This document shows, in pieces, positions 1,056 to 1,280 of a stretch of DNA of 58,917 nucleotides (its first letter is position 1; every line of letters starts with the position of its first letter). The translations under genes and the position numbers were made by a program. Location of the stretch: the IMG/VR virus record IMGVR_UViG_3300002307_000004, positions 1-58,917 of that record; one strand, written 5' to 3'. The stretch comes from a virus. The notes below the pieces were generated by a model. That model was not told the DNA's origin, did no database searches, and was given only the letters and a program-made list of their open reading frames with translations.

Positions 1056-1280
1056 TTAATATGTCAAGAGGCAACATCTTGCGGTTTGGTTTCGGTTAGG
1101 GTATTGTTTTATCAATAAAAAAGGGCGGGTTGACCCGCCCTCGCTCTTTGTCATCGTTAAGTTTGTCTGGGGTTTGGAACGGCATTTCCGCCTGTCCTTT
1201 TCCTTCTTTTTATCCGGTTTAATCCGGTGCCTAAACAGTGGCGATGCCAGTGCTTGGGCTTCTATATGCCTTGGTTTCAT
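1056..1280 (-). CDS. ArfA-like alternative ribosome-rescue factor (putative), ORF interrupted by an intrinsic terminator
   Basis: ATG 1280 with AGGA 6 nt upstream; 74 aa. IEAQALASPLFRHRIKPDKKKEK resembles the E. coli ArfA core [23 protein letters not shown] and is followed by a basic stretch. A hairpin plus U6 sits at codons 47-55 with no earlier stop. Confidence 0.5.
   Translation of the reverse strand: MKPRHIEAQALASPLFRHRIKPDKKKEKDRRKCRSKPQTNLTMTKSEGGSTRPFLLIKQYPNRNQTARCCLLTY
1116..1140 (-). terminator. rho-independent terminator inside the ArfA-like ORF
   Basis: Minus strand GGGCGGG-UCAA-CCCGCCC followed by UUUUUU (stem 1123..1129/1134..1140, U-run 1122..1117). Confidence 0.8.

Follow-up and report, generated by a model that had tools for sequence, protein, structure and literature searches.

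In bacteria, non-stop mRNA is the sole source of ArfA, which is thus produced only when tmRNA is overwhelmed; this constitutes a textbook feedback loop. The E. coli-type protein (also called YhdL; PF03889) is a small basic peptide with an N-terminal RN..A.AL..PLFRxR[VI] segment, and its gene carries a stem-loop within the ORF that is not preceded by a stop codon; the tail of the ORF past the stem-loop is dispensable. The segment of ArfA that is matched by the phage peptide described below consists of a helix contacting the decoding centre and a strand docking onto RF2, and the binding of the mRNA channel by the basic tail has been described as redundant (PMC8012679). A KGKGS motif is said to bind the mRNA channel (PMC6299226), and a KH motif is found in the C-terminal tail of the protein (PMC8012679).

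The non-stop design has been documented for arfA and for brfA (PMC8012679). In brfA of Bacillus subtilis, a rho-independent terminator precedes the stop codon; the mRNA is non-stop, its expression is gated by trans-translation, and the encoded peptide recruits RF2 (PMC8012679). The phage gene described here shares this regulatory design, but a sequence relationship between its product and BrfA was not detected, and BrfA is considered to have evolved independently (PMC8012679). ArfT of Francisella tularensis resembles the phage peptide as a small basic, release-factor-dependent rescue peptide (~40 aa), but it is considered to have an independent origin and, unlike the phage gene, is not regulated via non-stop mRNA (PMC6299226).

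Some phage genes have already been assigned to ArfA. Gp30 of pelagiphage HTVC027P carries PF03889 and is transcribed (PMC12753301), g10 of Citromicrobium phage vB_CbaS-RXM is named ArfA in the passage of its genome paper that deals with this gene (PMC8953757), and a gene of Pseudoalteromonas phage J2-1 is annotated as ArfA. Because of these annotations, a phage ArfA is less of a novelty than it appeared in the first-pass annotation of the locus (made by a model from the DNA sequence), which knew of no characterised phage ArfA. Our literature search turned up neither a functional study of a phage ArfA nor a report of a non-stop layout in a phage. What is new here is a phage-only clade of a known family with a known regulatory design, whose function we infer. 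We consider it fairly probable (roughly 60%) that the gene encodes a rescue peptide of about 54 aa, belonging to the ArfA/DUF7230 superfamily, whose own mRNA is non-stop.

Genomic context of the arfA-like gene

The window, that is the whole stretch of DNA that was analysed (58,917 nt of virus DNA, positions 1 to 58,917 of IMG/VR record IMGVR_UViG_3300002307_000004), encodes a terminase, a portal protein, a tail fibre, and a primase/helicase. Judged from these genes, it represents all or much of a phage genome, in agreement with the phage origin assumed in the first reading. According to the terminase, the nearest cultured phages are the Roseobacter phages CRP-901 and CRP-902 (47% identity), and a megablast search with positions 1-12000 of the window against deposited phages gave no match. 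A tRNA-Gln with the anticodon TTG is located on the minus strand at 5465-5539 (ARAGORN; 56 bits with Rfam).

The arfA-like gene is found on the minus strand, where an ORF of 74 aa (1280..1056) extends from an ATG at 1280 to a TAA stop codon at 1058..1056, its translation being exactly the one given in the first reading. A Shine-Dalgarno sequence (AGGA, minus strand, 1287..1290) lies 6 nt 5' of the ATG, as had also been noted there, and the alignment places a ribosome-binding site (GAGG, GAGGA, or GGAGG at comparable spacing) in front of every homologue. A GTG at 1337 was considered as an alternative start codon and rejected, since the homologues start at the equivalent of ATG 1280 and since the stop codon of the upstream gene in the homologous locus L004 lies 5 nt before that position.

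An insert of ~74 nt separates the arfA-like gene from the upstream gene in the window and in the loci L007 and L008, whereas L004 lacks it. In the window (minus strand, 1303..1364), it contains a hairpin resembling a terminator (1343-1323), with CTTTTCTTT after it, and is flanked by a 12-nt direct repeat, TACCGAACGGGA, at 1364-1353 and 1314-1303; by its appearance, it is a small inserted element. A scan of the window detected no promoter between this hairpin and the arfA-like gene. With a terminator-like hairpin directly upstream and no promoter in between, expression of the gene may depend on read-through.

On the other side, the next transcription unit begins with a gene (minus strand, 800..994) that encodes a protein of 64 aa with a CxxC...CxxC pattern, from which it may be described as zinc-ribbon-like. 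It gave no family match, and a homologous gene of 64-65 aa occupies the same position in the loci L004 and L005.

The predicted intrinsic terminator within the ORF

A predicted intrinsic terminator is located inside the ORF (minus strand, 1117..1142). The stem GGGCGGG (1140..1134) pairs with CCCGCCC (1129..1123) over a perfect 7 bp consisting of G and C throughout, the loop is TCAA, and a T6 tract follows at 1122-1117. The hairpin and T6 (1140..1117) cover codons 47-55 and are not preceded by an in-frame stop codon, so that what had been read from the letters at first sight matches the sequence exactly. The terminator scan reported the same site extended to 9 pairs, as pairing between the A-tract and the U-tract lengthens the stem, and the best local fold including this pairing has a free energy of -20.1 kcal/mol (z = -5.0 versus shuffles). 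The scan observed 4 terminator-like sites versus 1.5 +/- 1.3 expected, and a single such site per kb is, taken alone, not significant.

The comparison with other phages is more informative here. Ten complete homologous loci and one truncated locus were found, representing about four lineages with 50-87% amino-acid identity. All of them are located on phage-like contigs, where GP88, DUF932, primase/helicase, and terminase genes are common neighbours. In all ten complete loci, a hairpin followed by a T-run occupies the same in-frame place (codons 47-56), with free energies from -9.7 to -14.7 kcal/mol. The stems themselves vary between loci (GGGCGGG, GGGCGG, GGAGAGG, and (A)GGCGG), and so do the residues that the hairpin encodes (EGGSTRP, GGGSNRP, and KGEGKTSP). 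Compensatory double changes were seen at two stem positions and no pair was broken, as read from an imperfect automatic alignment. Because the terminator is kept in ten of ten loci with differing stems, it is more than a chance occurrence, and because the encoded residues change along with the stems, selection acts here on the RNA structure and not on the peptide.

At the sequence level, the gene therefore has the layout of arfA, with a stem-loop inside the ORF, no stop codon before it, and a product of ~52-55 aa. The predicted product of 53-55 aa compares with 52-55 aa for mature ArfA (PMC6299226). Unlike in E. coli arfA, the stem-loop is a classical intrinsic terminator and not an RNase III site. 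With the terminator inside the gene, the mRNA should lack a stop codon, and the peptide should consequently accumulate only when tmRNA is overloaded. The 3' end of the transcript would be expected around 1122..1114, and for an mRNA ending in the T-tract, the predicted mature peptide is MKPRHIEAQALASPLFRHRIKPDKKKEKDRRKCRSKPQTNLTMTKSEGGSTRPF.

Selection on the ORF and its tail

The ArfA-like coding part of the ORF comprises codons 1-54 (minus strand, 1119..1280), as supported by the ORF itself, by purifying selection, and by the matches to ArfA profiles. In comparisons among the ten related phage loci by the method of Nei and Gojobori, pN/pS amounts to 0.12-0.24 for codons 1-46, which lie 5' of the hairpin, and to 0.04-0.16 for the core codons 8-26; many synonymous changes among the homologues were seen in SPLFRHRIKPDKKK. 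For the tail 3' of the terminator, pN/pS is 0.63-1.5 (with the nearly identical pair L007/L008 left aside). Moreover, the first in-frame stop codon varies between codons 67 and 78, 11-24 codons past the hairpin, and in the locus L006 a seventh T in the T-tract shifts the tail into another frame. From these patterns, we conclude that the gene is real and that it is coding only as far as the terminator, whereas the tail (codons 55-74 and the TAA at 1058-1056; minus strand, 1056..1118) is best read as non-coding sequence that evolves neutrally. A spurious ORF laid over a spacer between terminator and promoter was ruled out by pN/pS together with the homology described below. The parts of the first-pass interpretation that sequence can address held up throughout, including the conserved terminator with its compensatory changes and the neutrally evolving tail beyond it.

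The same data bear on the simplest alternative, namely that the gene encodes an ordinary phage protein of 74 aa and that the terminator lets transcription pass or does not work in this orientation. An in-frame stop codon does exist at 1058-1056. A functional tail would nevertheless have to be reconciled with its neutral evolution (pN/pS 0.63-1.5), its variable length, its shifted frame in L006, and its overlap with a promoter, and the compensatory changes in the hairpin alter the encoded residues (EGGSTRP versus KGEGKTSP). We regard such a protein as very improbable.

The promoter just mentioned is a sigma-70-type promoter for the next gene (minus strand, 1040..1067; TTGACA, a spacer of 16 nt, and TAAAAT; 11 of 12 matches). 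It sits inside the tail of the ORF, and its -35 element TTGACA is invariant in six of six aligned loci. This element is of importance for another explanation, in which the ORF and its hairpin form a translation-coupled attenuator: a closely following ribosome would melt the hairpin, and read-through would report the match between translation and transcription, the ArfA ancestry being secondary. Such a role would suit the facts that the entire hairpin lies within the ORF in each of the ten complete loci and that the terminator divides two groups of genes on the same strand. The downstream genes have, however, their own near-consensus promoter with an invariant -35 element, and read-through is therefore not needed for their expression. 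Furthermore, leader peptides normally show neither strong purifying selection over 46 codons nor homology to a rescue factor, which makes an attenuator an improbable explanation.

Relationship to ArfA and DUF7230

The E. coli ArfA sequence used for comparison is identical to chain 3 of PDB entry 5h5u, and the segment on which the ArfA-like call was based had been quoted correctly. In a single BLASTP comparison with this protein, the window protein showed 12 identities over 25 positions (E = 9e-5), and PLFRxR is conserved across all homologues. Searches with the window protein as a single sequence (Pfam, NCBIfam, PHROGs, and PDB) yielded nothing useful, the PDB matches being chance matches to the non-coding tail. 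The Pfam model for ArfA (PF03889) gave no match to the window protein at E <= 10. NCBIfam gave no match either, and this library is uninformative here because E. coli ArfA itself gets no NCBIfam match.

Profile-based comparisons link the clade to ArfA in several ways. Of the two kinds of profile check that had been proposed at the outset, the one with the Pfam model was thus negative, whereas the alignment of profiles was positive: hhalign of the clade against 20 canonical ArfAs of the KGKG[SA]Y type gave a probability of 96.5% (E 7e-10). The aligned span joins residues 2-27 of the window peptide to residues 11-36 of ArfA, which is the N-terminal RN..A.AL.SPLFRxR half only, and it includes the N-terminal helix and the PLFRQR[VI] segment (about residues 15-30 in E. 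coli). An HMM built from the same 20 canonical ArfAs scored the window peptide at 21 bits, as the sole scorer among 1,113 open frames from all six reading frames of the window (next best frame, 6.8 bits). With this HMM, 5,000 composition-preserving shuffles reached at most 11.3 bits, which rules out an artefact of the Lys/Arg-rich composition.

In an exhaustive HMMER search of 1.8 billion proteins, a three-sequence profile retrieved proteins of 45-57 aa (E 5e-5 to 7e-4) with the core RRN..A.AL.SPLFRQR[IV]VPDKKK. Five of seven relatives tested, namely four of these short proteins and the clade member P0125, match positions 12-40 of the PF03889 profile with 13-17.5 bits; at 13.4-17.5 bits, the relatives stay below the Pfam gathering threshold of 25.5 bits. 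A profile from which canonical ArfA had been left out retrieved, from 5.8 billion sequences, PF03889-annotated proteins from E 4e-6 and proteins named ArfA by JGI from E 6e-8. Finally, a clade-only profile searched against 177,635 distinct PDB sequences found six chains at E <= 10, all of which are ArfA. Taken as sequence matches, these results support homology of residues 2-27 of the peptide to ArfA, with the match restricted to the N-terminal half.

The C-terminal half is similar to that of ArfA in composition, as residues 20-46 contain 11 Lys/Arg and 3 Asp/Glu. It is different in its motifs: KGKGS(Y) is absent from the window protein, which has KKKEKDRRK at the aligned place, and from all clade members, and no Lys-His dipeptide occurs in the 54-aa peptide. 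Instead of KGKGS and KH, a clade-conserved tail, KPDKKK...CRSKPQT(N/D)(L/F)TM(T/S)K, is found (KPDKKK...CRSKPQT.LTMTKS in the window), and the C-terminal part past PLFRxR is ~8 residues longer than in ArfA.

This combination, with likeness to ArfA only in the N-terminal half and a different, strongly conserved tail in place of KGKGS and KH, would be in keeping with an ArfA mimic that binds to stalled ribosomes in their vacant mRNA channel or A site and manipulates them, either by blocking tmRNA-SmpB, so that phage products escape tagging, or by sequestering a release factor that it does not activate, like ArfA(A18T). Single changes in the N-terminal helix can indeed uncouple the recruitment of RF2 from its activation (PMC8012679). 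The conserved segment is, however, the very one with which ArfA contacts and activates RF2 (PMC8012679), and the tmRNA-gated non-stop design fits a back-up rescue system and is known only for rescue factors (arfA and brfA). We therefore hold a mimic to be unlikely.

The best profile-profile match to the clade is DUF7230 (PF23876), a Pfam family without known function. Hhalign of the clade against four PF23876-annotated proteins gave 97.9% (E 6e-13) over 39 columns; the match takes in the PDKKK...C-R tail, and the core resembles the RRNP.A.AL.NP.FR.KVV.D+K+ pattern. The profiles of DUF7230 and ArfA themselves match each other with 96.9%. Neither the window protein nor P0123 or P0125 matches DUF7230 at the Pfam threshold of 27 bits, which is passed by the bridge protein P0127 (30.9 bits). 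Judged by these profile matches, the clade is slightly closer to DUF7230, the sister family of ArfA, than to ArfA. Since its nearest match is DUF7230, which is itself related to ArfA, the window protein is placed in the ArfA/DUF7230 superfamily and not in PF03889 proper.

The two bridge loci examined on the DUF7230 side (P0136 and P0162, neither of which has a precomputed PF23876 match) encode proteins of 43-57 aa that end at ordinary stop codons, with no terminator inside the ORF, and none of six viral or phage-like superfamily members examined in addition to the five deposited phage copies described below has an in-ORF terminator. The nearest stop-terminated relatives of the clade are likewise located on phage-like contigs; a search for related loci with a narrower alignment retrieved only 4 viral loci. 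A tblastn search with the 54-aa peptide against deposited phages gave no match. Unlike E. coli arfA, the window gene is phage-encoded, and no bacterial member of the clade was confirmed among the 185,579 species-representative genomes scanned, which consequently offer no prophage or host clue.

A conserved block upstream of the hairpin

Directly 5' of the terminator, the 42 nt of codons 33-46 (minus strand, 1143..1184) are conserved beyond the needs of the protein. Over five lineages, 71% of the nucleotide columns of this block are invariant, versus 28% in the PLFR core, and synonymous changes are depleted in codons 33-46 (Fisher p down to 7e-4). Rich in A and C, the block is predicted to be single-stranded. 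Only its last seven bases, CAAAGAG, are accounted for, via their pairing with the U-tract. Such a constraint at the nucleotide level hints at an additional or different role of the RNA, and the block could be the seed of a 3'-derived RNA or a protein-binding site.

From here it is a small step to the proposal that the selected product is an RNA and that the ORF is a second function or a carrier, for which the invariance of the block, its depletion of synonymous changes, and its unpaired A/C-rich stretch adjoining the terminator would all speak. An Rfam search of positions 1-6000 of the window, however, returned only the tRNA above threshold. A sub-threshold match to PrrB/RsmZ was discarded, as it covers just the terminator, and complementary targets of the invariant block within the phage were found at chance level. 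In addition, the upstream two-thirds of the gene carry a protein-coding signature and are homologous to ArfA; owing to this, an RNA role could only be additional, and an RNA as the primary product seems improbable.

Proposed mechanism

In the reading that we prefer, that of a rescue peptide with a non-stop mRNA, transcription on the minus strand would pass a group of small phage genes and end at the in-ORF terminator, and ribosomes translating the arfA-like mRNA would reach its end and stall. As long as tmRNA-SmpB has spare capacity, the nascent peptide would be tagged and degraded. When trans-translation becomes saturated, for example by truncated mRNAs during infection, untagged peptide would escape. 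Its basic C-terminal half, with the 11 Lys/Arg in residues 20-46, would then insert into the vacant mRNA entry channel of further stalled ribosomes, while the N-terminal helix and the PLFRHRI segment would recruit and activate a class-I release factor. The ensuing release would free ribosomes for the synthesis of phage proteins. Within this scheme, we infer termination in vivo, tagging by tmRNA, recruitment of a release factor, and the benefit for the phage.

A more elaborate version, which we consider possible but unlikely, would be a dual-purpose device that includes a sensor of tmRNA saturation and in which an ArfA-derived peptide with a re-engineered tail redirects or blocks host rescue. 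If this were true, it might, for instance, serve against defence systems based on the cleavage of mRNA or tRNA.

That compensatory evolution has maintained the non-stop design in a clade restricted to phages suggests that some phages monitor and supplement the ribosome-rescue capacity of their hosts during infection, and a 54-aa peptide together with one terminator makes a compact system for testing this. The clade is moreover a natural variant in which the release-factor-contacting half is kept and the channel-binding motifs are replaced, which may inform on the real requirements of ArfA. ArfA/DUF7230-type mini-proteins appear to be widespread in phage genomes, where they are mostly unannotated or mis-annotated.

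ArfA-like proteins in other phages

Five deposited phage copies were examined. Four of them (from Arash, pf16, J2-1, and Ac42) end at an ordinary stop codon and have no internal terminator. The fifth is g10 of Citromicrobium phage vB_CbaS-RXM (L015, locus 383-565), which encodes an ArfA of the KGRGSY type. Its ORF contains a stem-loop at codons 35-44 (-30.6 kcal/mol, z -6.8) that is followed by a hydrophobic tail, a layout that suggests the classical arfA non-stop design; the passage on g10 in the genome paper does not mention the stem-loop (PMC8953757). This gene contradicts the idea that the phage ArfAs outside the window clade all lack an internal stem-loop. With respect to the channel-binding motif, the copies from RXM, Arash, and pf16 have the canonical KG(K/R)GSY, whereas those from J2-1 (KTKYRRK) and Ac42 (KTQYSRK) are without it.

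In Salmonella phage Arash, gp99c (L012) is labelled 'ribosomal protein L2' and is actually an ArfA homologue with KKGKGSY. In Pseudomonas phage pf16 (L013, locus 386-538), an unannotated ArfA-like ORF with KKGKGSYRREK... partly overlaps pf16_199, which is annotated on the opposite strand. A 48-aa hypothetical protein of Bradyrhizobium phage BDU-MI-1 (P0186; KY940711.1, 102314-102457; MKRRSAPAKALESPLFRQQVIDSRKKKRK...) is an unannotated member of the superfamily. Finally, p003 of Acinetobacter phage Ac42 (L016) is a hypothetical protein of 39 aa, MKGKRNPIAKAVRTPAFKMQVVKDKTQYSRKEKFKKSYE, that resembles the ArfA/DUF7230 superfamily; its gene ends at a normal stop codon, which is followed by a terminator, and proteins of this type are conserved in about 63 records of T4-like Acinetobacter phages.
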